A stretch of DNA of 64,000 nt from Acidobacteriota bacterium (GTDB lineage Bacteria; Acidobacteriota; Thermoanaerobaculia; Multivoradales; J023): NCBI GenBank assembly GCA_029263395.1, contig JAJCXO010000162.1, positions 8,798 to 72,797 of the forward strand, read 5' to 3'. Under the pieces are notes generated by a model that made no database searches, was not told the DNA's origin, and worked only from the letters and a program-made list of their open reading frames with translations. The position numbers and the translations under genes were made by a program. Of this stretch, positions 6,299 through 63,324 are shown piece by piece; position 1 is the first letter of the stretch; each line of letters begins with the position of its first letter.

Positions 6299-9066
6299 GG
6301 CTGCTCCGTTGGCTGCTGTGGCTCTTGCCCGCCGACTTTCGTCGCGAGTATAGAGACGAGCTGTTGAGCACGGTGAACGCTCGGTGGCGAGCGATGATGC
6401 GAGAGCAGCGTCTGCAACAACGCCTCGGCCAGGTACGGCATCTCAGCCTGGCCAGGCGCCTCCGGTTTTGGGTGCGGCAGTGGCTCGCGGTGGTCCGTAT
6501 AGCTGTGAACTTGCGACGGGGTAGCGGCATCTTGGGCGGCGCCGATCGACACCAGCGGCGACGCGGGTCGCTTGTCGACGGCGCCTGGAAGGATGCACAA
6601 CACGTCGTACGGGCTCTCAGGACTCGCCCGGGATTCACCCTGGTGGCCGTCCTCACCCTAGGATTGGGCATCGGTGCCACTACCGCCATGTTCAGCGCCG
6701 TCCACTCAGTGCTGCTGCGGCCCCTTCCCTACCAGGATGCCGACCACATCGTTGTCGTTCGGCAAGTCGACAACCGCGACGGTACGCTCGAAGAGGGCGT
6801 CTCGGCGGCCAACCTGCACGACGTGGCGGCCACTGCCCACTCCTTGTCCCAGGCCTCGGTCGCCGCCGCCCACGGCCTCCGCCTGATGGAGGACGGCAGA
6901 GCGTTCAGCCTGCGCAGCTGGTTGGTGTCGGAAGGCTTCTTCGAAGCCCTCGGCACCCAGGCCCTGATCGGCCGGACCTTCCAGGCCGAAGAGCTCACCC
7001 CCGGGGGTGAACACGTTGTCCTGCTGAGCCACGCCACCTGGCAAAGTCGCTTCGGCGCCGACACTGGAATTGTCGGTCGTGAGCTGATCTTGGATGGGGC
7101 TGCCTACCAGGTGATCGGAGTGCTGCCAGCCGACTTCGAGTATCCCTCCGCCGCCGACATCTGGGCACCTCGACCCGTCCAACCCTCGGACGAACCAAGG
7201 CGGGGCGCCGCCAACCTGGACGGCGTCGCACGACTCGCTCCAGGCATCACCGCCGCGCAAGCCCAGACCGAGCTCAATCATCTCGCTACCGAACTGGCCG
7301 CGGCCTACCCGATCGCCAATGCCGACCTGGGGTTTCAAGTCACCCCGCTCAGGCAACACCTCTTGGGTGACGTCGAGTTACCACTGATCCTTCTGCTGGG
7401 TGCTGTCGGACTGGTGCTGTTGATCGCCGCCGCCAACGTCGCTGGCCTACAACTGGCACGGGGAGCTGGACGCTCCCGAGAATTTGCCTTGCGGGGAGCC
7501 CTCGGCGCCAGCTCCCGCAACATCTTACGCCTGGTCTGCGTCGAAAGCCTGCTCTTGGCCGCAGCCGGCGGCCTGTTGGGACTCGGCATCACCTACTTGG
7601 GAGTTGATCTCATCCGACTGCTGGGACCAGATCATGTTCCACGCCTCGACGAGCTCCGGATCGACAGCACGGTACTCACGTTTGCCCTGCTCGCCGCGAC
7701 CGGTAGCGCTCTCCTGGCCGGTATTGCCCCGGCCTTGCAAGCCTCGAGAGATCTGCAAGCAGCGCTGACGGAAGGTGCCCGCGGCTCCACCGGCGGACCG
7801 CGTACCCTCCGCCTCAGAGATCGCCTGGTAATGGCGGAAATCGCCGTCGCCCTGGTACTCGCCATCGGCGCCGGACTCCTGGTACGGAGCTTCGATCGAC
7901 TCTTGGACAACAATCTCGGCTTCGAGCCGCAGGGCCGGCTGGCAGTCCAGGTCTGGGCCTATGACGACAACCATCAGCCCCAACTGGACTTCTTCCAGCG
8001 CAGCCGGGAAGCCATTGGCACCTTGCCAGGGGTTGAGGCTGTAGGACTCACCACCAACCTTCCGCTGGCCGATGACCAGTCGATCCTGGCTCGAAGTCGC
8101 ACCGTGCGGTTTGGGCTCGCAGGTGTCACCGCAGCATCCGACGGTGACCAACCCATCGCTGGCTGGTCAGCAATCGACGATGGTTACTCGGAGGCCATGG
8201 GTATCCCACTGCAAGCCGGCCGCACATTCTCTCCCCGAGACGATCCCCAGTCGTCGCCCGTCGCAATGGTCAACGAAGCCTTCGTGCGGCGCTACTTCCC
8301 GAACCAGGACCCACTCGGCCAGCAGCTGCTCTTCGGCACCCAGGCCGACAGCTCGCGGGAGATCGTCGGTATCCTGGGTGACGTTCGCCGACGCGGATTC
8401 GACTCAGAATCGCGAGCAGAAATCTACCTGCCGCTATCTCAGGCTCCGTCCGCTGGCCTCACATTTGTCATTAAGACTGCATCCTTCGAGACGGCCTCCC
8501 TCGAGACGGGCCCCGTTGGTCCAGGCCTCGGAAAGACAGCCTCGATCACGACCACCGGTGACCCTACGGCCTTGATCCACGCCGTTCAGAAGACACTGCG
8601 CGCCGTCGACCCGAGTCAGGCGATCTGGGCAATTCGGCCGATGACCAACTTGATGTGGGATTGGACCCGCCAGCGACGTTTCAATACGGCTCTGTTAGCG
8701 GCATTCGCAGTCCTCGCACTGTCGCTGGCCAGTATCGGCGTTTACGGCCTGATGTCGTTCTCGGTCGAACAACGGGTGAATGAGCTGGGGATCCGCCGGG
8801 CATTGGGCGGCAACACCCGCGACATTCTGACTATGATCCTGCGGCGAGGGTTGAAGCTTGTCCTGACCGGCGTCAGCCTCGGACTGTTGGGATCCCTGGC
8901 TCTGACTCGTCTAATGCAGAGCCTGTTGTATGGCATCGAACCGTTCGATCCCCTCACCTTCGGGATGTTGGCGGCGTTGGTCATCGTTGTCGCCGTGCTG
9001 GCAGCCTACCTGCCGGCACGGCGTGCGACGCGAGTTGACCCGATGGTGGTCCTGCGGTCTGACTAA
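6295..9066 (+). CDS. ADOP-family (FtsX/MacB-like) ABC transporter permease
   Basis: 923 aa. The N-terminal 'LPADFRREYRDELL' motif is typical of acidobacterial duplicated orphan permeases. There are two FtsX-like 4-TM modules separated by large periplasmic domains. It is translationally coupled to PadR, which is the classic pairing. Confidence 0.8.
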   Translation: MRLLRWLLWLLPADFRREYRDELLSTVNARWRAMMREQRLQQRLGQVRHLSLARRLRFWVRQWLAVVRIAVNLRRGSGILGGADRHQRRRGSLVDGAWKDAQHVVRALRTRPGFTLVAVLTLGLGIGATTAMFSAVHSVLLRPLPYQDADHIVVVRQVDNRDGTLEEGVSAANLHDVAATAHSLSQASVAAAHGLRLMEDGRAFSLRSWLVSEGFFEALGTQALIGRTFQAEELTPGGEHVVLLSHATWQSRFGADTGIVGRELILDGAAYQVIGVLPADFEYPSAADIWAPRPVQPSDEPRRGAANLDGVARLAPGITAAQAQTELNHLATELAAAYPIANADLGFQVTPLRQHLLGDVELPLILLLGAVGLVLLIAAANVAGLQLARGAGRSREFALRGALGASSRNILRLVCVESLLLAAAGGLLGLGITYLGVDLIRLLGPDHVPRLDELRIDSTVLTFALLAATGSALLAGIAPALQASRDLQAALTEGARGSTGGPRTLRLRDRLVMAEIAVALVLAIGAGLLVRSFDRLLDNNLGFEPQGRLAVQVWAYDDNHQPQLDFFQRSREAIGTLPGVEAVGLTTNLPLADDQSILARSRTVRFGLAGVTAASDGDQPIAGWSAIDDGYSEAMGIPLQAGRTFSPRDDPQSSPVAMVNEAFVRRYFPNQDPLGQQLLFGTQADSSREIVGILGDVRRRGFDSESRAEIYLPLSQAPSAGLTFVIKTASFETASLETGPVGPGLGKTASITTTGDPTALIHAVQKTLRAVDPSQAIWAIRPMTNLMWDWTRQRRFNTALLAAFAVLALSLASIGVYGLMSFSVEQRVNELGIRRALGGNTRDILTMILRRGLKLVLTGVSLGLLGSLALTRLMQSLLYGIEPFDPLTFGMLAALVIVVAVLAAYLPARRATRVDPMVVLRSD

Positions 9067-9255: not shown

Positions 9256-10938
9256 TCATTTTTTAGCCTCCGAGGCCAGCACTCGTCCACCACGGCCGAT
9301 CCGAGTTCGGCGCTCGATGGCAAAGTTCTCGAGCCGGATTGCCGGGCGCTCTTCTGGTGACAACGACAAGATGTACGCCACCAGCCCCCAACGATCTTTC
9401 TCCTCCGGCAGCGCGCCATCAAAGGCTGGCATCGGCGTGCCGTTGAGACCGGTCACAAAAGTCCGATAAATATCTTCCGGTTCATGGCCATTGCGGAAAA
9501 CCCATTTGTTGGTCAGATCCGTCGAGGCAATGAAGTCCCCCCAGCTATCCTCCAACTCCGCGGCAGCCGGCCCGTCACCTTCTCCACTGGCCCCATGGCA
9601 GCGGTAACACTGTGCTTCGTTGTACACCATCTTGCCGTGATCAGCGAGCTGCATGAACTCTGCTGGTGGTTCTGGAATACTGATCGTTTCCGGTTGGTAG
9701 CCACTGCGCTTGGCTTCGAGGAAGTCGTCTGACAAAGCGATCAAATAACTCGACACATCGCTGACTTGCTGCGTATTGAGAAACTGTCCCCAGGCCGGCA
9801 TAGTGGTCCCCGGGACCCCCTCGCGCACCACACGTTCAATGTCTTCAACCAGTGGGAATTCTCCACTGATCGTCGAACGGAATTTGTAGACCCCTTCGGT
9901 GAAGTCACGTGGTTTGACGTCGAAGCCCGCTGCCAAGAAACCGTCGCCATCTCCACGAATGCCATGGCACACTGCACATTGCTGGAGATAAATCTGCTGC
10001 CCTCGCTGCATGGCAATCGTTTCCGGCAAGTCGTCTGGAACCTGCACTGCCGGCGGATTGGGATCATATTTCTCGAGATTCGCCTGCACGGCTCCTGGCT
10101 CGACGTAGGAAATAGCTTGACCTGGCGTCGCAGGTGGATCCTGCTTCGCCCAGTTCCCTTCCGACGCGAAACCATGACCGAATAGGTCATACATCTTGAA
10201 GAAGTCCGCCACCCGACAATCGGTCAGCACTTCCCGCAACTCGTGGTAATAACGTCGGAAGGAATATGTGAACGAAACGCCCTGACCACCGAGCAGATGG
10301 ATCACTCCATCCACCGGATCGACCACCGCTTCCTGATGGAAAAGGTAACGATAATACGGGCTCGTCGAGCCGCCGATGTGTTGGAGGAACTCGACCCAAG
10401 GCACCGGTGACGCAGGATCTATTTCAACCAAACGATCTTTGACGTTGACGCCATAAACGCCGCCATACTTTTCGAAAAAATCGGGGAACATCGTATCCGT
10501 CCAACGATGTTCTCCAATCACATGACCAATCGTGAAGCCAAAGCTTGCCAGGGTGTTGCGCTCCCAATGGGAGCCCGGCGCCCAATAAAAAATCACGCCA
10601 CCTTCCGGCCCATCCCAATCTGTTCCGCCATATTGCTCCACTTGATGTTCGGCAATTTTGTTGTTGAGCGCCCAGAACACAAAATCGATCCAACGCGGAT
10701 CACCGGGCACCAGGGTGAGGTCGTGATCGGTGAGCGCCGAGTCCGGGTTATAGGAGGTCCGCACATCGGAACACGCCTCGCCCCACTCGCTCGACGTCCA
10801 GGCCTGAGGACTGAGGTGATCCTTGTTCGAAGTGCCGCCCTCCTCGGGCGCGTTCGCATAAGCGAAATACACGCACGACAGCCCGCAAACCACGAGCAGC
10901 GGACACAGAACGGACAGAGCGAGAATACGACGGCGCAT
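9256..10938 (-). CDS. Secreted di-haem c-type cytochrome with an ~290-aa N-terminal domain of unknown function
   Basis: Signal peptide. Two CxxCH motifs (CAVCHG, CYRCHG) in the C-terminal half, each followed by a Met-containing segment. The N-terminal domain is unassigned. Confidence 0.7.
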   Translation of the reverse strand: MRRRILALSVLCPLLVVCGLSCVYFAYANAPEEGGTSNKDHLSPQAWTSSEWGEACSDVRTSYNPDSALTDHDLTLVPGDPRWIDFVFWALNNKIAEHQVEQYGGTDWDGPEGGVIFYWAPGSHWERNTLASFGFTIGHVIGEHRWTDTMFPDFFEKYGGVYGVNVKDRLVEIDPASPVPWVEFLQHIGGSTSPYYRYLFHQEAVVDPVDGVIHLLGGQGVSFTYSFRRYYHELREVLTDCRVADFFKMYDLFGHGFASEGNWAKQDPPATPGQAISYVEPGAVQANLEKYDPNPPAVQVPDDLPETIAMQRGQQIYLQQCAVCHGIRGDGDGFLAAGFDVKPRDFTEGVYKFRSTISGEFPLVEDIERVVREGVPGTTMPAWGQFLNTQQVSDVSSYLIALSDDFLEAKRSGYQPETISIPEPPAEFMQLADHGKMVYNEAQCYRCHGASGEGDGPAAAELEDSWGDFIASTDLTNKWVFRNGHEPEDIYRTFVTGLNGTPMPAFDGALPEEKDRWGLVAYILSLSPEERPAIRLENFAIERRTRIGRGGRVLASEAKK

Positions 10939-15115: not shown

Positions 15116-15245
15116 GATGGCTGAACGATTTTTGCGTGGTACAGCGATCGGCCATCCAATGGCGGATCGATTTTTGCGTGGCACAGCGATCGGCCAGCCG
15201 ATGGCTGATCGATTTTTCCGTGGCACAGCGATCAGCCATCGGATC
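15116..15245. repeat. Three tandem ~42-bp units, each a hairpin (12-bp stem GATGGCTGATCG / CGATCAGCCATC, ~17-nt loop)
   Basis: Read directly. The third unit is a perfect inverted repeat. Units 1 and 2 have 1-2 mismatches. The region is an AT-rich ~850-bp intergenic stretch. Confidence 0.7.
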
Positions 15246-15284: not shown

Positions 15285-15460
15285 AAGTTCTGACGATTCA
15301 ACGCTCGTAAATCGTCAGAATTTCCAGATTTCTGACGGTTCAGCGCCTGCAAATGATCAACATTCTTAGAATTGTGATGATTCATGGGCAGTCAAACCGT
15401 CAGAATTTTCCAAATTATGACGATTCAAGAACGCTTGAACAGTCAGAATTTTGCCTCTCG
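15285..15460. repeat. Cluster of inverted and direct repeats built on TTCTGACG / CGTCAGAA(TTTCC)
   Basis: TTCTGACGATT-N14-AATCGTCAGAA. TTCTGACGGTT-N~55-AACCGTCAGAA. Three copies of GTCAGAATTT(T)CC. The region is AT-rich. Confidence 0.6.
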
Positions 15461-42107: not shown

Positions 42108-42248
42108 AGCTATCGAAAATTCGCCCAAGGAGTCGACGGTCAAGATTGTGCTGAGGACGGCAAGCCTTACACCAACATCATCGGCCAAAGTGTGCCGGAA
42201 CGGTGGCGTGAACTCGTCCTCACCCCTGAGGAACGCCCCTAGCAACTT

Positions 42249-42490
42249 TCAACTCGCATTCCTCACCATTGAGAAACGCCACCTGAGAGGCTGAACTCGC
42301 GTTCCTCACCATTGAGGAACACTGCGCGAGCGGCCCGACTCACCTTCCTCAGCGTTGGGCAGGTGACCTCGGCAACTCAGGTCGCTCGCCTCACCGTCAA
42401 GAGCGGCTTCGGAGGGACTCAGGTCACTCGCCTCACCGTCAAGTGCGGCTTCGGAGGGACTCAGGTCACTCGCCTCACCGTTCCAGCAAG
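42249..42490. repeat. Array of ~5-6 degenerate ~42-bp tandem repeats sharing a CCTCACC-N-T-N-AG core
   Basis: AACTCGCRTTCCTCACCATTGAGRAAC x2 at 42-bp spacing. Then CAGGTCACTCGCCTCACCGTCAAGTGCGGCTTCGGAGGGACT x2.6 (a 42-bp unit). A perfect 14-bp palindrome GCGACTCGAGTCGC lies just downstream (~42578). Confidence 0.65.
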
Positions 42491-54688: not shown

Positions 54689-55507
54689 TCAGCGAGTGCC
54701 TGATCCGGCACTTGACTCCTCAGGAGCGGTCTTGTCGGCCGCATCATCTTGATCCGTTGGCTCGTCGTCAGCCGCTGCACCGGATCCCGAACGGCGCTCC
54801 GACGGACGGACCCGCTCGGCGGCATCGTGCAGGCCGGCGATGTGTAACAAGCCTGCAACGGTCCGAGTGATGTAGAGGTAAGTCTGATCGTACGTCTCGA
54901 TCGCTTCGTTCTTCTCCAAACGGGTTGCTTCGGCCTGTTTGCGCGCCCCGGCGTGATCGGTGAGCACCCGGTCGAGCGTCTTGGCATCAGACGCCAGGCG
55001 CTCGGAAACCCGGGAGTGATCCACATCGAACCCTTCGACTGCCGGCAGCGCCACCTTCGGTTTGCCGAGGAAGTCCACCGTTTCCCGCACCTGCTTGAGT
55101 AGACCTGCCGGGTCACGCAGGGTGGGTCCCGCCACTCCGACCACCGTAAACCCACGAACACCTCCGTAGAGATTCTCCAAAGCGTGGCGGACTTGAACGA
55201 AGTTCCCGGCGAGATCGCTTGCAAGCTCGTCCCGCTGTCCAGCGAGTTCAACAACCCTGGCCAGCTGTCCCTGGTGGCCGGTGTTGACCCCCAACATGTG
55301 CTGGAACGCGCCCGCGAGCTCAACGTTGAGATCGGTGAAGACCCGTTGGTAATCGGCGGCGGGCGGCCCCTCTGGCACCGACGGATACTTGGCGCCGAGG
55401 ATACCGGCGGCTTCGTCACCGGTAGCCCTGATAGCTGCGGTGACCACATCGAACGACCTTCTCTTGGCGGCGAGTGTTCGATCCTGCGTTTTGACTGGTT
55501 TTTTCAT
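54689..55507 (-). CDS. Hypothetical protein (272 aa), no recognisable domain
   Basis: The start is chosen at 'MKKPVKTQ' (ATG 55507). It lies downstream, on the same strand, of the MTase/nuclease pair after a ~430-bp gap. Confidence 0.4.
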   Translation of the reverse strand: MKKPVKTQDRTLAAKRRSFDVVTAAIRATGDEAAGILGAKYPSVPEGPPAADYQRVFTDLNVELAGAFQHMLGVNTGHQGQLARVVELAGQRDELASDLAGNFVQVRHALENLYGGVRGFTVVGVAGPTLRDPAGLLKQVRETVDFLGKPKVALPAVEGFDVDHSRVSERLASDAKTLDRVLTDHAGARKQAEATRLEKNEAIETYDQTYLYITRTVAGLLHIAGLHDAAERVRPSERRSGSGAAADDEPTDQDDAADKTAPEESSAGSGTR

Positions 55508-55936
55508 GAGTCTGACTCCATGTGCTTTTTCGAGGGTACCGGACACCACCCACACGGCGGCGCTTTCGTCTCCCTCTACCCCTTCATGCACCTGCTGGAG
55601 GGATTTCGGTCATGGACGCCAGAATTTATTCTTACAGACCTGCAAGCAGTGCCCTCAACACCTCCGAGGACACCGATCCGATCTCCCATCGGTGCCGACG
55701 TGCGATCGACTCTCACTCACTAACTAGATCCCGTCCCGTTTTGCCATTTTCGGCTCGGTGAGGGAGATCTTGTGGAGCGAGCAAGCAGCGAGCATGTTTG
55801 AGCTTCGCACCTGTTCCCATCTCGTATCCGATAGCACCAAAAGGGCTTAGGCTTCTCGTAACAGATCCGGCGAGTTCTGGAGCGGCGGCGCAGCCCACAA
55901 GGCCGACCGAGCTCTCGGCATGTTGTTGGATGGGAT

Positions 55937-56686
55937 CTAACTACAGTCGTGCCAGAGATGATAGATACGAATATCAGTGGCGGCCCCTTTGTCAGCCACC
56001 CACGGAAAACCACGTTGATGTCGGCTGACATAGAGAGCTTCGGCTTTGCCACGCGCTTCCGCACCCCGGACCTCTAGTTGACGCGGAGGCTCGGTGGTTT
56101 TCAACTGTTCCAGTCGTTCAGCCTTGTTCATCTCAGGAATCAGATGCTGGGTTATGGTGCGGTCCCGTGTATAACCCAACATCAAGCTCTCTTGCATCGC
56201 CCATGCGTAGTCGCCGTCTACAAAACGAAGTAGCCCAAGTCCGCAATAGTGTTTGCCAACGGCGTGAGTCTTATCGATAGGCTTACATTCGACGAAGAGC
56301 GCATCGTGCACCGACAAAACTCGCGGGGTTTCTTCCTCGTCGCTGCAAAGCTTGAAGCAAAGATCTGGCGATTTCTTCAGCTTCTTGAGGGTGTAGTTTG
56401 CAACCTCGCCACCTCGGATCACTGTCTCGTACGTCCGGCAATTGAAACCACGAACGCTTCCCTTCTGACGCAGATCGTTCTCGACGATACCTCTCAATGC
56501 CGTCGTGATCTCGTCCTCCTTTTTGGTCGCCAACGAGCCTTGCTCGAGCAATAGTTCGAACGCACGCAGCAGCACACGGCGAATCAGGAGGATCACGGGC
56601 AGCTCAATGTGAGGATGCGGTAGATCATAGTCCTCGGGCGAAACGCCAAGGGCGAACAGCCCATCTACAGCCTGCTGACGGCTCAT
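55937..56686 (-). CDS. PD-(D/E)xK nuclease-superfamily protein (restriction-endonuclease-like)
   Basis: Motif 'SPDL…(x19)…HDALFVECKP' (D…ExK). The ATG at 56686 overlaps the MTase stop (ATGA), which indicates translational coupling. Confidence 0.55.
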   Translation of the reverse strand: MSRQQAVDGLFALGVSPEDYDLPHPHIELPVILLIRRVLLRAFELLLEQGSLATKKEDEITTALRGIVENDLRQKGSVRGFNCRTYETVIRGGEVANYTLKKLKKSPDLCFKLCSDEEETPRVLSVHDALFVECKPIDKTHAVGKHYCGLGLLRFVDGDYAWAMQESLMLGYTRDRTITQHLIPEMNKAERLEQLKTTEPPRQLEVRGAEARGKAEALYVSRHQRGFPWVADKGAATDIRIYHLWHDCS

Positions 56687-59600
56687 GTTTGCTGAGTCAG
56701 CCCCAACGCGCCAAAGTGGTGCTTGATAATGTGCTGCCCGCACGAGCGCGCACGGGTAATAGTCCACCAACGCCGCTGGTTGAGCAGACCCAAAAGCAAA
56801 CCACGCCTGCCGTGCGCCTTGACGATAATCCGACTGGCAGAGCGCTTGTTTGCTTCTTGCATGGCCCTGCGCAGGAGGGACGCATTGACCGGCACTGGCT
56901 CTGCCGCTCGCGAAATGGCGAGAAAGAACCACGGCTGCCTCCAAGTGTCCGGCTGGTCTGACGGCTCCTCGATCAAGACGGTTTCACCACAGACGTCGAA
57001 GTAAGGCTCGAGGGCCTCTTGCAACTCAGTCCGGAATGGATCCCGATGCTCCCGCATCGTGCGCTCGAGCGCTGCACGGCCTGCCCGCCGATACGAAGCA
57101 GAAGCGAACAGAGTATCTCGGGCAACCTGCACTGCGTCCTCGTCGAGGCCGTAGAGATTGAACAGGAACGTGTCGATCTCATTCCATGGCTTCTCTACAT
57201 TGTGTTGGAGCTGGTGTGCGAGATTCTGCAAGGTGTCTTTCGTCGAAACAGAAAGCTCTGTTACGTCTGGAAACGCCAAGGCATCGAATTCGCTTTTGTT
57301 GAACGTCTGTCGATCGAAGCCGGCACGACGACTCGTCATCAAGCAAAAGTAAGAAAAGAGTGTCGAATGGGGAAGTAGATAAATCAGCGCCGCTAGAGTT
57401 CCTTGGTCTCTGAGCTCAGCACAAGAATAGCCATAGAAGCTCTGAGAAAAAGCGAGCGCCTGGTTAGAAATAAAGGCTCGCGGCTTCTCTGGATCTTCGC
57501 CGGGAGATTGAGGAATAATGACCAGAGGCGGTTGATAGAGATACTTTGTCTTCGGCCAGTATGCGGTGGCGCATCCGGCTTCGTTCATATTGTGCGTACT
57601 GTGGGTTTCTAAGAAGGTCTTGAGACTCTCATAGTGAATCGAGAAGCCTAATTGGGGCGACTCGAAGTTAGGGAGGCTACCAAGGAATTCAGCTGGTTTT
57701 TGCCTCAGCGCTGGCGAGAGATTGTAGCCCTGACCAGTCTTGTCCAACTTTGGATTCCACGCCTTCCATAAGACTCCCAGCTTCTCAGGAAAAGCTTTCT
57801 GAATCTGCTCTACGATCTGCACATCGCGCCAGGTGCCAAGGGAAAGTGCTTTCAACACCCACGGCTGCTCTTCCAAGCGTTCGATGGAGATTGGCCGGGT
57901 CGCTTCATAGTCGACGCGAAAACGCGCATGGTGATGCTGATCCGGTTCATAAAGTGGTGACGCATAGTAAAATCGATGGCCTGGTGGTGTAATGCAATTG
58001 CGTGCGAACAACAAGCAAAAAGGCATATCAACAGCTTCCCACACCGGTGTCTTGCGCAGATCAGCGCCGTTGATCAGGCCGGTAATCGAGAGAGCGCGGA
58101 GTATCGCACGCCAAGCTTCGAAACCTTTCCCTTCAGTTCGGCCGAAGATACGAGCGGGCAGAGCGAAGGCTATAAGCCCATTCTCTTTTTTAGCCCAGAC
58201 GGTCGCCCGCCAGATGAAAGGGAGGTCGGGATTCTTGTCGGGATTTTCGTACACTTCCGCCAGCTCTGGTAAACCACGCTCACGGAGCGCACGGCGTCCG
58301 ATCTCGGTGAACTCCTCATTCAGCGTATCCGAATTGGTTTTGACCCTCTCAGTAGGCTTCTCTTCGGTGCTTTGTGGCTTTCTTTCCCGCAGCCGTGTCC
58401 ACGGCGGGTTGCCGATTACGATGTCAAAGCATCCGTTGAATTCTTGCGGAACGCTCGACCCTAAGCTACCGAGGGTGAAGCGAGATGTGCGACGCGACAC
58501 TTCTTGAGCATCAGCATCGCCAAGCTCCTCTCTGAAGCAGTAGAGCACTTCGTTGCGGAGATCTCGGGGAAACTTGAGTGTCTTGGGTGGTCTCGGCGTG
58601 CCATTGACCTCGATCGCCGTGATGTAGAGCGCTAGCGCGGCGAGACGAAGGGCTGATTCGCTGATCTCGAATCCACGGATCTGGTTGTAGAGGATCCTCT
58701 GGATGACTCGGGTATTAGGTCGCTTGCCATCCGCCTGCCAACGCTCGCTGACGAGTCGACGAAAAGCCAACACGAGAAAGATGCCGGCGCCACATGTCGG
58801 GTCGAGGACCTTGGCCTCGACTGGGTTCTTGACAGCAGAAAAGGTCTGATCCACCATCAACCGTGCGATGGTGCGAGGGGTGTAGTGAATACTGGTGGCT
58901 TGCGCGGAGTGGGGATCAGCACGGTGGCTGAAGCTCTCGTACACCTGGCTGAGCACGCCAACCGGGATGTGTGCAAAGTCGAGGTCCCCCCAGTCCAACG
59001 TCAGCTGCATGGCCTCGCCGGTAGCTTTCCATCCATTCAAGATGGCGTGGAGATGGAGAAAAAACTTGCGCCCGGCACGCTGCTCTGTCGCCTGGTAATA
59101 CCGCTGGTAGGCCTCCTGGCGTGCGACACGATCCCTGGCGGGGATGGATTCGTCGATCAGCTGGAGAAAATCGCCGTTGAAGGTCTCGTCGAGCCAGGCA
59201 GAGGTCTGCGCGGCCTTTTCGGCGTTGGCAAAGGTGTCCTTGAGACCGTCCGCGGCGGGGCAGATGTCCTGCAGCTCCTTATTGAGCACAATCTTGCGAT
59301 CGACAAGAAAACGGAAGAATAGGGCACGGCCAGCCATCGACAAGACGTCGAGCGGTGGCACAAGTGGCTCTTCGCCTGTGCCGACATACTGGTCGATCGT
59401 CTGCTTCAGCAATCCAAAAATTTTCTTGAAGACATAATCCGAGCCCTCGAGTCGTTTGTTCTCCTCGAGAGTGCCGTGAACCAGGCCTTGAAAGAAGAGG
59501 GGCGCTGTTGTCTCATCTTCCTTGATGGTCAACGCCGGATGAAGCGCCGCGTCTTGACCAAAGCCGATAGGGTGGAGTTCTAGCTGACCGGGCCGCGCCA

Positions 59601-59901
59601 CGCCGAGCCAAGCTGGATCACTGCGATTGGCGAGCATCTGCTGAAGCTGGCTGATCCTTGCAGTCGTGGCACTTGCATCACCACAGGCATCTACGAGGTA
59701 AAGCAGCGCCGTACCCTGATGCTCCGCAACGGCATTAACCGGTGCCGAAGCAGAACCCCTTGTCGGCAATAGATCCAGATATTCAATCTGGGCGGGGCTG
59801 GCCAATGGCTCGTCGAGCCGAATAAGGTCGGGGCAACCGTAGGCCCGCATGCGCTCGGTGAGAGGCCGCCCGCTCGCCGCATCTGGTTGCTTGGTTGTCA
59901 T
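56683..59901 (-). CDS. Large (1072-aa) gamma-class N6-adenine DNA methyltransferase, Type IIG/PglX-like
   Basis: Motif X 'SIHYTPRTIARLMVD'. Motif I 'DPTCGAGIFLV'. Motif IV 'NPPW', in gamma order. There is a ~390-aa N-terminal region and a ~500-aa C-terminal (TRD-like) region. No nuclease motif was found within this polypeptide. Confidence 0.85.
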   Translation of the reverse strand: MTTKQPDAASGRPLTERMRAYGCPDLIRLDEPLASPAQIEYLDLLPTRGSASAPVNAVAEHQGTALLYLVDACGDASATTARISQLQQMLANRSDPAWLGVARPGQLELHPIGFGQDAALHPALTIKEDETTAPLFFQGLVHGTLEENKRLEGSDYVFKKIFGLLKQTIDQYVGTGEEPLVPPLDVLSMAGRALFFRFLVDRKIVLNKELQDICPAADGLKDTFANAEKAAQTSAWLDETFNGDFLQLIDESIPARDRVARQEAYQRYYQATEQRAGRKFFLHLHAILNGWKATGEAMQLTLDWGDLDFAHIPVGVLSQVYESFSHRADPHSAQATSIHYTPRTIARLMVDQTFSAVKNPVEAKVLDPTCGAGIFLVLAFRRLVSERWQADGKRPNTRVIQRILYNQIRGFEISESALRLAALALYITAIEVNGTPRPPKTLKFPRDLRNEVLYCFREELGDADAQEVSRRTSRFTLGSLGSSVPQEFNGCFDIVIGNPPWTRLRERKPQSTEEKPTERVKTNSDTLNEEFTEIGRRALRERGLPELAEVYENPDKNPDLPFIWRATVWAKKENGLIAFALPARIFGRTEGKGFEAWRAILRALSITGLINGADLRKTPVWEAVDMPFCLLFARNCITPPGHRFYYASPLYEPDQHHHARFRVDYEATRPISIERLEEQPWVLKALSLGTWRDVQIVEQIQKAFPEKLGVLWKAWNPKLDKTGQGYNLSPALRQKPAEFLGSLPNFESPQLGFSIHYESLKTFLETHSTHNMNEAGCATAYWPKTKYLYQPPLVIIPQSPGEDPEKPRAFISNQALAFSQSFYGYSCAELRDQGTLAALIYLLPHSTLFSYFCLMTSRRAGFDRQTFNKSEFDALAFPDVTELSVSTKDTLQNLAHQLQHNVEKPWNEIDTFLFNLYGLDEDAVQVARDTLFASASYRRAGRAALERTMREHRDPFRTELQEALEPYFDVCGETVLIEEPSDQPDTWRQPWFFLAISRAAEPVPVNASLLRRAMQEANKRSASRIIVKAHGRRGLLLGLLNQRRWWTITRARSCGQHIIKHHFGALGLTQQT

Positions 59902-59985
59902 CGTCGATCCTGGGTTATCCGGTCGTCCGATTGTAGCCGAGCTAGGCCGAATCTGAATCTCAGCGCCCCATTACGGTCCGGCAGT

Positions 59986-60180
59986 CAGCGGCAGCGACAG
60001 TGGCCAGCGGCAGCGACAGTGGCCAGCGGCAGCGACAGTGGCCAGCGGCAGCGACAGTGGCCAGCGGTAGCGACAGTGGCCAGCGGTAGCGACAGTGGCC
60101 AGCGGCAGCGACAGTGGCCAGCGGCAGCGACAGTGGCCAGCGGCAGCGACAGTGGCCAGCGGCAGCGACAGTGGCCAGCG
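59986..60180. repeat. Perfect 19-bp tandem repeat x10 (CAGCGGCAGCGACAGTGGC; two copies carry a C-to-T variant)
   Basis: Read directly. It lies in the divergent intergenic region between the MTase start (59901) and the ECF-like sigma start (60370). It is flanked by CATTACGG / CATTACCG. Confidence 0.9.
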
Positions 60181-60369
60181 CCTGACGCCTCATTACCGCT
60201 TCAGATTAAGTCAGGATCGCAGTAAAGTCAAGCCAGTGATGGCTTTGTGAGATGTTCTGCCGGTTACCAAACTAGACCGGGCGACACAACCGCATGCGAC
60301 GTCAACTTCGGGCAGAGAGGCTTCCTGGGGTGCAGCCCCACGATAGAGGTGTACTAGGCTAGGTGCGTC

Positions 60370-61056
60370 ATGAGCCGCACACCCCAGCGTCAAGCACCCC
60401 AACGTCGGGCAAACCCTGCCAGAGCCCACAGTGACGAAGACATCGAGGATGCGATCCGTGCGCTGACGCCGGGGCATTTCAAGAAGCTGCGGGCCGCCGC
60501 CTACGCGCTGGTGCGCGGCCTCGACCTCGAAACCGCCGGGCGGGGACACGAAGACCTGTACTCCGAGGCTTTGGCACGCACCCTCAGTGGCAGTCGTAGC
60601 TGGCGTCAGGGAGTGGATTTTATGTACCACCTCATCCAAGCGATGCGCAGTATCGCTTGGACCTGGCGCGAGTTCGAGGATCGGCGTGAACGGGCTGGCT
60701 TGGTCGGCGCGCTGGGTGCCGGCACCCCTGAGGGCGGCGAGGACGAGGTAATGGATCCGGTTTCACCCGAGCCCAACATCGAGACCGCGTACCTCACCTC
60801 TCGCGAATTGGCCAGGTTTCATCGCCGGTTCAGTGACGATCGGCCGGCGAGCATTGTGATGCACGGATGGGCGCAGGGGGAGTCGATGCAAGAGATGGCG
60901 CAGCGCTTCGGCATCGCCCTCCAGGACCTACAGTGGGCGGCGCGCCGGATTCGGCGATTTTCGCAACGCGCCGCGCCCGAAGACAGCTGGCAAACAATTC
61001 GACAAGCAGTTCGACAGGCAGGTTCGCGGGATCGAGGAGACACCCATGGCCAGTGA
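60370..61056 (+). CDS. Divergent ECF-like sigma-70 family protein
   Basis: Region-2-like 'GHEDLYSEALARTL…FMYHLIQAMRSIAWTWRE'. Region-4-like 'IVMHGWAQGESMQEMAQRFGIALQDLQWAARRIRRF'. Conservation is weak. Confidence 0.45.
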   Translation: MSRTPQRQAPQRRANPARAHSDEDIEDAIRALTPGHFKKLRAAAYALVRGLDLETAGRGHEDLYSEALARTLSGSRSWRQGVDFMYHLIQAMRSIAWTWREFEDRRERAGLVGALGAGTPEGGEDEVMDPVSPEPNIETAYLTSRELARFHRRFSDDRPASIVMHGWAQGESMQEMAQRFGIALQDLQWAARRIRRFSQRAAPEDSWQTIRQAVRQAGSRDRGDTHGQ

Positions 61057-61474
61057 CCGCAACAACCAGCGACACCAGCTCGAGAGCTTGCTCGACGGCA
61101 TCGTCGAGTCCATCTTGGACGCCCCCGAGGAAGAGATCGACGACGACTTGAAGGCTCTGGGCGAAGACCCGGAGAAGGCCGCGATGGAGTCCCGCCGGCT
61201 CGCCCTCGAAGCCGTTGCGCAGCACCGTACTCAGCGCCGCGAACAAGCTCGTCAGCAATACGAAGACGAACAACAGACCTTCGAAGGCCAGGCATACGAT
61301 CTACCGGAGACACCCCGAGCACGCCTTGCCCTGCTCGTCGCCGCTGTCCATGGCAGGCCACACCTGAGCGGTATGCTCACCGTTGAACATCGCGATCTGC
61401 GCGGACTGCCAGACGAAGACGTGGTCGGCTACCTGCGCCAACTCGCCGAACTCGGGGTGCTCGACGAGCTGTGA
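61046..61474 (+). CDS. Small acidic helical protein (candidate anti-sigma or substrate of the downstream protease)
   Basis: 142 aa, highly acidic, no TM segment. It overlaps the upstream sigma-like gene by 11 nt. Confidence 0.4.
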   Translation: MASDRNNQRHQLESLLDGIVESILDAPEEEIDDDLKALGEDPEKAAMESRRLALEAVAQHRTQRREQARQQYEDEQQTFEGQAYDLPETPRARLALLVAAVHGRPHLSGMLTVEHRDLRGLPDEDVVGYLRQLAELGVLDEL

Positions 61475-61487
61475 GGCCCAACGAGCT

Positions 61488-62609
61488 GTGACCCAACGCT
61501 GGCCTTTCGCGCACTCGGCAGAACGACGCTGGCACGACCCCGCCGCACTGCTGCGCCACCTCGGGATCACCTGCCCTGAGGACATCGATGTCGAGGCGAT
61601 CGCACGTTACTGCAACGCCCGCGTTTCGTATCAATCGCTGAACGGCTGTGCCGGGCGCATCGTCGGTCACCGCGGCCGTGCGGTGATCGTCGTCGACCGC
61701 AACACCCACCCATTTCGCCGACGTTTCACCATTGCCCACGAGCTAGGCCACTGGATGTTCGACCGCGCCGACGTCGCCCACGTCTACACGGAGGACGCTT
61801 GGGGCCAACCTTCCGAACAGCCACCAGCCGCCGACAACGGTCCACATGAGGTTTGGTACGAGGACCGGCCAGAGCAGCGAGCAAACCGCTGGGCCGCCGA
61901 GCTGTTGATGCCCGAAGGATGGTTCGCTCCGGATGCGGCTGGCCGCGAAATCAGCTTCGATACCGTCCGCGACCTGGCCCAGCACTACCGAACCAGTCTC
62001 ACCGCCACCGCTCTGCGTCTCCTCGAACTGGGTTCGACGCCTGCGATGCTGATTCGCAGCTGCCGAGACCAGCCCAATCGGTGGTTCAGGCGCGGCGCTG
62101 GCGTCCCACGGAGTCTCTGGCCACATCCTGAACCCTGGCCCGGCACCGTCGCCTTTGACCTGCTGCACGGCCACTCTCTCCATACCGGTCTCACCGCCGT
62201 AGCCGCCGATGGCTGGATCGACCGCCGAGACGCCTGGTGGTTTCGGGTCAACGAAGACTCGCTGCCCGTGGGAGGCGGCGATGTCCTCACCTTGATCAGC
62301 TGGCCTGACGACGCCCAACTGCGCGCCACCTTCACCCTCGCCGGCACCTGGCTACCGTGGAAGCCGGGAAAAAACGCCCGCGCTCGCTTGCTGAAGTGCC
62401 TGTGTGACAAATGGTCCTACCGTCGCCGACGGGGTCAGCCAGGGGAGACCGTCCTCGAAACCGATCAGCCTACACCCCAGCACCTCACAGTATCGTCAGC
62501 CGAGGCGCTCGACGTCGAAGGCTTCAGACGGCTGGTGGACGAGGTCGCCACACACAAGGGTGTACCGCCGGGAATTGTCCTACGTTCGATGTTGCGGCGG
62601 CCGAAATAA
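61488..62609 (+). CDS. ImmA/IrrE-family (COG2856) HExxH zinc metallopeptidase with ~230-aa C-terminal extension
   Basis: 'RRRFTIAHELGHWMFD' HEXXH context. 'ANRWAAELLMPEGWF' is a downstream Glu. IrrE-like overall architecture. The start is set at the GTG at 61488. The ORF track ATG at 61383 would overlap the upstream gene by 90 nt. Confidence 0.7.
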   Translation: MTQRWPFAHSAERRWHDPAALLRHLGITCPEDIDVEAIARYCNARVSYQSLNGCAGRIVGHRGRAVIVVDRNTHPFRRRFTIAHELGHWMFDRADVAHVYTEDAWGQPSEQPPAADNGPHEVWYEDRPEQRANRWAAELLMPEGWFAPDAAGREISFDTVRDLAQHYRTSLTATALRLLELGSTPAMLIRSCRDQPNRWFRRGAGVPRSLWPHPEPWPGTVAFDLLHGHSLHTGLTAVAADGWIDRRDAWWFRVNEDSLPVGGGDVLTLISWPDDAQLRATFTLAGTWLPWKPGKNARARLLKCLCDKWSYRRRRGQPGETVLETDQPTPQHLTVSSAEALDVEGFRRLVDEVATHKGVPPGIVLRSMLRRPK

Positions 62610-62619
62610 TCCATCACTC

Positions 62620-63060
62620 CGGGCCCAAAAGCCCAATCGACCCTCGATCCGGGTCCCAAGCACCGCCCGGGAGGTCAATCGGCCCTCGATTGGGGTCCCA
62701 TGAGCCACAACAGGCCCAAACGACCATCGATTCGTCCATTCGGCGATCACGCAACCGCCAAACGAGGGTCGATCGGAGGACACAGACCAGAGCCATCGCA
62801 AAAACGAGGGTCGATTAGCCTCTGCGACGACCGTCGAGACTCCAATCGAGCGACGATTGGGGTTCCAACTGTTGCTCGGGACCTCAATCGAGGCTCGACC
62901 CGCCTGCTGGCAGCTCCAGATGGTTCAAACGACCATCGTTTGAGCACTTTCCCAGATAGCGACAGTGACAACGAGGGTCGATCGGGCTGCCGTGCGACGG
63001 CGCAAACTCCAATCGACCCTCGTTCGACTCTAGGGCAGTCTCTCGAGCAGCGATCGACCC
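62620..63060. repeat. Array of ~11 degenerate ~41.5-bp tandem repeats, each centred on a 13-14-bp palindromic core (AATCGACCCTCGAT and variants, both orientations)
   Basis: Cores fall at roughly 62628, 62669, 62710, 62753, 62795, 62836, 62877, 62918, 62960, 63001 and 63043. ORFs exist in several frames on both strands, so the region is probably non-coding. Confidence 0.7.
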
Positions 63061-63324
63061 TCGAATTCAGACACTAAGGGCCAGGCGGTGGCTCGACGAG
63101 CGGCTGGCCGTCATCAAGACCGGCTCTAACTTGGGTTTCGACTTGCATGATGGTCTCCTTTGTTTGAATGTCTGCAGATCGACGGACACGATACCCTGGC
63201 ACCGAGACCTTGCCACGATTGACCAAGGCGGAGCGCCTCGCAGGACAAAGTCCCGCTTGATGGGGACACTCCTAAAGGCGTCAATCCGTAAGGGATTCGA
63301 TCACAGCCTTTGAGTTGTTGCTAC

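Follow-up and report, generated by a model that had tools for sequence, protein, structure and literature searches.

Bacterial VNTR or minisatellite loci, as used in MLVA typing, consist of units of 10-100 bp that are nearly identical and arranged head to tail in non-coding DNA, and the 19-bp tandem array described here resembles them in these respects as well as in its partial terminal unit and in a variant that is common to adjacent units. VNTR loci are in practice defined by their polymorphism between strains, whereas the copy number of the present array comes from one assembly. Some tandem repeats are found directly upstream of genes. The copy number of the repeats in the M. tuberculosis dop, lpdA and cysG promoters varies within and between strains, and an effect on expression has been proposed (PMC12817950). 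Like the array, these are perfect tandem repeats directly upstream of genes, but their units are 54-58 bp long and contain the promoter (PMC12817950), whereas no pair resembling -35 and -10 elements can be read in the 19-bp unit. Extra copies in M. tuberculosis add promoters because the repeat unit includes the promoter itself (PMC12817950). The hmw1A and hmw2A genes of H. influenzae carry 10-25 heptanucleotide units in the promoter region, and their expression is graded by the number of units (PMC8262952). The array is likewise located in a promoter region; however, the H. influenzae units are 7 bp long, transcribed and located downstream of the active P2 promoter (PMC8262952), whereas the units here are 19 bp long and are found upstream of both predicted promoters. 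The M. tuberculosis and H. influenzae repeats are useful analogies, neither of which appears to fit the anatomy of this locus.

The genes next to the array bring two further systems into the comparison. CapH and CapP respond to DNA damage and regulate the immune operons next to them (Lau et al. 2022, bioRxiv 10.1101/2022.04.27.489752); in these systems a CapP-family peptidase is divergent from a defence-type operon, as is the case here. The operator of CapH is a single conserved 22-bp site (bioRxiv 10.1101/2022.04.27.489752), whereas the 19-bp array is not conserved. The locus also differs in that its trio of regulator genes includes no recognisable HTH CapH, the partners of the peptidase being a sigma-like and a helical protein. 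Plasmid iterons and parC centromeres resemble the array in having several direct repeats, each about 19-22 bp long, within or close to a promoter. Such iteron and parC arrays adjoin their own rep or par gene, are kept among relatives and diverge between copies. The 19-bp array, by contrast, has no rep or par neighbour, is unconserved and consists of near-identical copies.

The window, which is the entire 64-kb stretch of DNA that was analysed, contains ten consecutive 19-bp units followed by a partial unit, CAGCG, at 60176-60180 (Table 1), giving an array of 10 x 19 + 5 bp, or 195 bp. The unit is composed of CAGCGG, CAGCGA and CAGTGG followed by a single C. Eight of the ten units are perfect, and units 5 and 6 (60062-60099), which read CAGCGGTAGCGACAGTGGC, each carry one identical C-to-T change at unit position 7. 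The original prediction of a perfect 19-bp repeat in ten copies, two of them with a C-to-T change, is borne out by two methods that agree with each other: Tandem Repeats Finder reports a period of 19 with 10.3 copies, 98% matches and 0 indels at 59986-60180, and a pattern search of the 64 kb allowing up to 3 mismatches finds ten consecutive units in steps of exactly 19 bp. The score of 376 is the highest among the 43 Tandem Repeats Finder rows for the window. Shuffled sequence holds a mean of 0.09 unit matches, and none of 100 shuffles reaches 10. With near-identical units of at least 10 bp arranged head to tail, the array is of the VNTR or minisatellite kind.

Table 1. Positions of the 19-bp array, its neighbouring genes and the control elements in the window
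Feature	Position	Strand	Basis and remarks
Homologue of the ~270-aa gene found divergent from the trio in relatives	54698..55507	-	tblastn
Conserved regulatory block of the 270-aa gene/trio module	55508..55632	.	CCCACACGGCGGCG...TCTCCCTCTAC...CTTCATGCAC...TTTCGGTCA
Putative inserted cassette (approximate)	55633..60344	.	Non-coding tail, nuclease-like gene, methyltransferase, array, 164 bp right of array
Partner ORF, up to 335 aa	55937..56944	-	PD-X24-ECK motif read from translation
1072-aa N6-adenine DNA methyltransferase, type IIG/PglX-like	56683..59901	-	Profile matches; NPPW motif
Sigma-70-like promoter candidate, methyltransferase	59930..59957	-	TTCAGA-16-TACAAT, 9/12 consensus matches
19-bp tandem array	59986..60180	.	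10 x CAGCGGCAGCGACAGTGGC + terminal CAGCG
Weaker promoter-like site, trio	60200..60228	+	TTCAGA-17-TAAAGT, 8/12, read by eye
Conserved block directly 5' of the sigma-like ATG	60345..60369	+	GGTGTAYTAGGCT...
228-aa ECF-sigma-like protein	60370..61056	+	Two helical domains, disordered linker (AlphaFold, pLDDT 69)
142-aa all-helical protein	61046..61474	+	Model pLDDT 79.5
CapP-family (ImmA/IrrE, M78) metallopeptidase	61488..62609	+	373 aa from public-record start; P0001 100% identical
Palindromic core array, 11 sites WWCGA-NNN-TCGWW	62636..63065	.	Strict 41/42-bp phase, best ATCGACCCTCGAT

The right junction of the array is identical in an independent Logan assembly (run SRR15505512), whose contig (L057) also carries the sigma-like gene, preceded by DNA that is 100% identical to the window. 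The repeat and its right flank are therefore real. Since the Logan contig starts 30 nt within the array (L057 1-30), the copy number of ten comes from a single assembly. The contig end inside the array is the usual stop of a short-k de Bruijn assembly at a tandem repeat. Tandem repeats such as this one break short-k assemblies and would be under-reported in such data. It is highly improbable that the repeat exists while its copy number, or the join across it, was made by the assembler. The k-mer-based Logan assembly does stop exactly within the array, and 195 bp is probably longer than a short read, but the right junction recurs in that same independent assembly, and each perfect four-unit run spans no more than 76 bp between unique flank and the T-variant units, so that reads of at least 100 bp should be able to resolve the unit number. 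A chimeric join across the array is unlikely because the genes that flank the inserted cassette (Table 1) together make up a module which relatives carry uninterrupted.

The array is non-coding, as had been predicted from its period. The unit is free of stop codons in all six frames, with the exception of a TAG created by the C-to-T change, and open reading frames that cross the array thus exist by construction; the one on the plus strand starts within the methyltransferase gene of the opposite strand. With all frames open by construction and a period of 19 that is not a multiple of 3, a coding repeat was ruled out. Single-strand DNA folding of the array on both strands is no better than that of dinucleotide shuffles (z +1.2 and +3.7), and scanning the whole window for Rfam families and tRNAs returned no match; a structured DNA or RNA was ruled out on these results. 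A CRISPR array was likewise rejected, the units abutting one another without spacers.

The predicted location between divergent genes also holds. A gap of 468 bp separates the ATG of the methyltransferase gene (59901, minus strand) from that of the 228-aa open reading frame (60370, plus strand) and contains the array. The promoter candidate on the minus strand is the only sigma-70-like site found in 59700-60600 and is well placed for the methyltransferase, its predicted -35 box being located 28 bp from the array. The plus-strand site scores below the threshold of the promoter search, and its predicted -35 box is 19 bp from the array. The two -35 boxes are inverted copies of each other over 8 bp (AATCTGAA at 59950-59957 and TTCAGATT at 60200-60207), a match that has a chance probability of about 0.05. 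Both promoters are sigma-70 consensus matches only, and the uncultured, probably acidobacterial host may use another consensus. If the predictions are right, the array would be located upstream of both -35 boxes, in which case a change in unit number could not alter the spacing between -35 and -10. The suggestion that copy-number change alters promoter spacing is thereby reduced to the distance between the two promoters. Between the back-to-back predicted promoters this distance would be about 70 bp with one unit and is now 242 bp, and every added unit shifts the helical phase between them, 19 bp corresponding to about 1.8 turns.

The minus-strand gene was correctly identified from the sequence as a methyltransferase. 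Its product matches the Pfam families Eco57I (7.5e-11), N6_Mtase (1.8e-10) and MmeI_Mtase (2e-9) as well as PADLOC REase_MTase_IIG (6.4e-19), with the type IIG and PglX profiles (PADLOC, NCBIfam) covering only the methyltransferase core. A scan of 185,579 species genomes identified homologues with 31-70% identity in 47 loci, which span at least five phyla (Acidobacteriota, Verrucomicrobiota, Planctomycetota, Proteobacteria and Myxococcota). A partner ORF follows the methyltransferase in 44 of these loci; in the remaining three the contig breaks off inside the methyltransferase gene. The motif of the partner is typical of PD-(D/E)XK nucleases and suggests a nuclease-like protein; searches of Pfam, PADLOC and PDB with the partner returned no match. 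The longest form of the partner ORF shares about 260 nt with the 3' end of the methyltransferase gene, as is also the case in close homologues. The trio is found near the methyltransferase in 0 of the 47 homologous loci. Two Acidobacteriota MAGs carry 20-bp tandem arrays a few kb from the methyltransferase cassette, one of 11.8 copies in a divergent intergenic region (L024 12621-12856, labelled Thermoanaerobaculia) and one of 4.8 copies (L009 13150-13245), and the units of both contain the palindrome GGAAGTCGCTTCC.

On the other side of the gap, the plus strand encodes the trio. The first protein had been called sigma-like, a description that holds in a weak form. A Foldseek search with the 228-aa model returned the ECF sigma factors SigH, RpoE-NepR and sigmaE-RseA as best matches, with a probability of 0.94-0.98 but E values of at least 7e-3 and TM scores of 0.24-0.41. 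Within the family, weak Sigma70_r2 matches are seen in five of 12 members and weak r4 matches in three of 12, and the NCBIfam sigma E profile matches the 228-aa protein at E=0.068, which falls short of the cut-off. The 228-aa, 142-aa, 270-aa and 335-aa proteins yielded nothing above the cut-offs in Pfam, NCBIfam, PADLOC and PDB. The 142-aa gene is always located between the sigma-like and peptidase genes in trio loci; a fold search with its model gave no significant match, and the protein may be a candidate anti-sigma factor or CapH-equivalent substrate. The identification of the third gene as a protease is confirmed and can be made more precise, as the 408-aa ORF matches PADLOC capP at 5.6e-50 over profile positions 11-241 of 242 and Pfam Peptidase_M78 at 7.8e-15, and its translation contains HELGH (HExxH). 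With both the CapP profile match and the HExxH of M78, the gene product is a CapP/ImmA-IrrE-type metallopeptidase as judged from its sequence.

Among the described CapH/CapP systems, 24 have capH and capP beside a sigma factor of the sigma-70 family (bioRxiv 10.1101/2022.04.27.489752), and a literature search on sigma/CapP trios found only a one-line mention in the same study (Lau et al., bioRxiv 10.1101/2022.04.27.489752). Taken together with the weak sigma-like evidence for the trio, these systems make a sigma/anti-sigma/peptidase logic a reasonable inference for the trio. Homologues of the trio, with proteins that are 61-82% identical, are found in L001, L003, L004, L053 and L054, and more distant ones in L055/L056. 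Their neighbours in L001, L003, L004, L053, L054 and L055 are varied and of defence type, including a distant methyltransferase with a 223-aa gene, PemK/PIN toxins, a Dnd-associated/SMC/helicase/TerB cluster, Mrr and SLFN_AlbA_2 genes, and a caspase-like Peptidase_C14 operon. The trio behaves like a portable regulator cassette. In L005, which belongs to a genome of 9.3 Mb, a 42-bp array of 7.3 copies with 95% matches (9411-9766) takes the place expected for the sigma-like and 142-aa genes, immediately 5' of a CapP homologue with a shortened N-terminus, and the locus looks like a decayed trio.

Comparison with these relatives sheds light on how the gap came about. The trio of L001, L003 and L053 is separated by only 157-245 bp, which include a well conserved block, from a divergent gene of about 270 aa. 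A homologue of this gene is present in the window, located 4.9 kb from the trio, and its protein is 73% identical to the 270-aa protein of L001, 68% to that of L003 and 60% to that of L053; it belongs to no Pfam or NCBIfam family. The homology to the compact intergenic region of the relatives stops near 55632 and resumes near 60345. The block next to the ~270-aa gene was identified by alignment with the intergenic regions of L001, L003 and L053. Next to the trio, the sequence shared with the relatives is limited to about 25 bp in front of the ATG, the match to L001 coming from alignment and those to L003 and L053 from reading. The module extends over 54698-55632 and 60345-62609 in the window, 5095-8354 in L001, 5125-9527 in L003 and 3153-6158 in L053. 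The trio and the divergent ~270-aa gene form a conserved four-gene module which in the window is split by the methyltransferase cassette of about 4.7 kb.

The most economical interpretation is that a mobile restriction-modification cassette, about 4.7 kb long, entered the divergent control region of the trio/270-aa module. The inserted segment has a GC content of 0.52-0.59 compared with 0.60-0.65 in the flanks, and a search for terminal repeats gave only weak and unconvincing matches, the best of which is direct and covers 21/28. The array is located inside the incoming DNA, 164 bp from its right end. Given this insertion, the 'divergent promoter region' of the original prediction is a secondary junction created by the cassette and did not evolve as a regulatory region: the location between divergent genes stands, and the notion of a shared regulatory region does not.

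The array itself has no counterpart in the sequences searched. No further copies of the unit are present in the 64-kb window, a 25-nt unit-junction pattern has no exact match in 185,579 species genomes, JGI metagenomes or IMG/VR, and a 30-nt right-flank pattern has none in JGI metagenomes. A dispersed element was ruled out, the unit being absent from the rest of the window and the pattern from the genome, metagenome and viral collections. Each of four local proteins is the sole member of its 90% cluster in a protein collection of 15 billion sequences. None of the 47 methyltransferase homologues has a tandem array or even a single copy of the unit upstream, the eight closest have upstream regions that cannot be aligned with the one in the window, and the unit is absent at up to 4 mismatches from the trio-homologue loci, including the control regions of L001, L003 and L053. 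A conserved operator was rejected on the grounds of these unalignable upstream regions and trio loci devoid of the unit. The array also fails as a CapH-type operator, since the conserved block of the trio module (55508-55632 and 60345-60369) lies outside it. Other strong intergenic arrays are found among the related loci sampled, namely 42 bp x 7.3 in L005, 20 bp x 11.8 in L024 and 124 bp x 4.2 in L031, and such comparable arrays with other units indicate that they are common in these genomes. The window itself holds two further intergenic arrays of 42-43-bp units.

A second array of a different nature is found directly downstream of the CapP-like gene. Its 13-bp core occurs in both orientations, and the spacing of 41/42 bp corresponds to four helical turns. 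The 14-mer, with as many as 2 mismatches allowed, would be expected 0.47 times in the window and is observed 11 times, nine of these within the 62636-63065 cluster. Arrays in the same phase are located 3' of CapP homologues in L005 (10982-11455, 11 sites) and L054 (1889-2277, nine sites), and L001 has seven more degenerate palindromic sites 3' of its CapP homologue (8408-8669). Loci such as L004 and L053, in which the peptidase gene is directly adjoined by the next gene, lack the palindrome array. Some of the palindromic cores are followed by a secondary yGGGTCCC motif. The array is kept across loci whose proteins are only 61-77% identical and sits between the trio and variable downstream cargo. 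It is a better candidate than the 19-bp array for the iterated, protein-binding sites of the regulator cassette.

Further repeats were noticed elsewhere in the window. Three 42-bp units in tandem at 15117-15240 are each built as an inverted repeat (GATGGCTGATCG...CGATCGGCCATC), and a motif of the CGTCAGAATTT type recurs several times after them at 15290-15460, within an 850-bp gap without any ORF of at least 150 aa. Two adjoining arrays of 42-43 bp units (about 2.4 and 2.5 copies, up to 96% matches) are located at 42217-42481, again in a gap without an ORF of at least 150 aa.

The 19-bp array is probably a young minisatellite of the VNTR type that was generated by slippage, ordinary in kind and without a conserved sequence-specific role. 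It is proposed that a 19-bp segment between the 5-bp direct repeats CAGCG was duplicated via microhomology-mediated slippage, and that the duplicated unit then grew stepwise to ten copies by slipped-strand mispairing or unequal exchange. The layout of n x 19 + 5 with CAGCG at both ends points to such microhomology duplication and slippage, and the 98% identity, with the sole variant in two adjacent units, argues for recent unit-by-unit duplication and against long-maintained binding sites. The minisatellite would have arrived with the horizontally acquired methyltransferase and nuclease-like cassette, or have grown beside it, in non-coding DNA. Its sole built-in effect would be to push the promoters from about 70 to about 240 bp apart, a distance that would be mutable in steps of 19 bp. 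We infer that the array originated by slippage, is unstable and lacks a function; a lineage-specific function would remain compatible with the absence of conservation.

Contingency repeats act beside restriction-modification genes and regulator cassettes, and phase-variable restriction-modification genes are common. Instability beside restriction-modification genes is a known theme. The main rival to a minisatellite devoid of function is a copy-number effect on one or both promoters. The unit number would reversibly tune the methyltransferase/nuclease operon, the trio or both, by way of the distance and helical phase that separate one divergent promoter from the other or RNA polymerase from a bound regulator. 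Long perfect repeats are indeed prone to slippage, the array is only 28 bp and 19 bp away from two predicted -35 boxes that pair as an 8-bp inverted repeat, and promoter repeats that grade expression are known from H. influenzae hmw1A (PMC8262952) and M. tuberculosis (PMC12817950). Such a contingency locus is nevertheless unlikely here, as the array is located neither between -35 and -10 nor, on present predictions, in a 5' UTR, its unit contains no promoter element, and it is not conserved in related methyltransferase or trio loci. A more specific and rather doubtful proposal holds that the array is a selected, copy-number-variable spacer which couples the captured restriction-modification cassette to the DNA-damage-responsive sigma-like/CapP module, for which promoter-promoter distance, supercoiling coupling or helical phase would be the means.

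The original prediction also offered the repeats as iterated sites for a neighbouring regulator and as carriers of the methyltransferase recognition sequence, and neither proposal gains from the comparisons. ParR/parC and plasmid iterons use head-to-tail units of about 20 bp in promoter regions. By analogy, the unit or its CAGYGR hexamers might bind a local protein and form a repressive or insulating nucleoprotein array, with the 142-aa and sigma-like proteins, two candidate DNA-binding proteins encoded next door, as the putative binders. CapH, too, binds its 22-bp site upstream of a -35 box (bioRxiv 10.1101/2022.04.27.489752). This seems improbable: the conserved control DNA that accompanies the trio in L001, L003 and L053 does not contain the unit, no such array precedes the 47 methyltransferases, and no Rep or Par family gene is found among the neighbours. 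In addition, a period of 19 bp sets successive sites on different faces of the helix, the perfect identity of the units argues for youth and not for maintenance, and a different, conserved palindrome array, phased at 42 bp, already lies on the opposite side of the module. There is only a very slim chance that the array represents many copies of the recognition sequence of the methyltransferase, acting as a methylation-sensitive switch or decoy. The enzyme is an N6-adenine methyltransferase and the unit offers four adenines in distinct contexts (CAGCGG, CAGCGA, CAGTGG), but the 5-mers and 6-mers of the unit are neither depleted nor enriched in the rest of the window, with an O/E of 0.82-1.25 in what is a weak test on 64 kb only. 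These values fall inside the 5th-95th percentile of all 6-mers in the window, and recognition-site avoidance was discarded for want of a signal in the unit k-mers. Moreover, no comparable array is found beside the 47 homologues.

As a young minisatellite, the array alone matters little: it would be an unstable intergenic repeat that may serve at most as a typing marker or expression tuner in one uncultured lineage. If it were instead a selected spacer, it would confer heritable and reversible variation in restriction activity and would represent a long-unit (19-bp) phase-variation device that operates between two promoters and not within one. Its wider interest is that it marks what appears to be the landing site of a mobile restriction-modification cassette in the control region of a CapP-type regulator module. 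This module, which is probably sigma/anti-sigma-based, is mentioned in the literature and uncharacterised, and the 42-bp-phased palindrome array beside it is the feature of the locus that deserves a study of its own.
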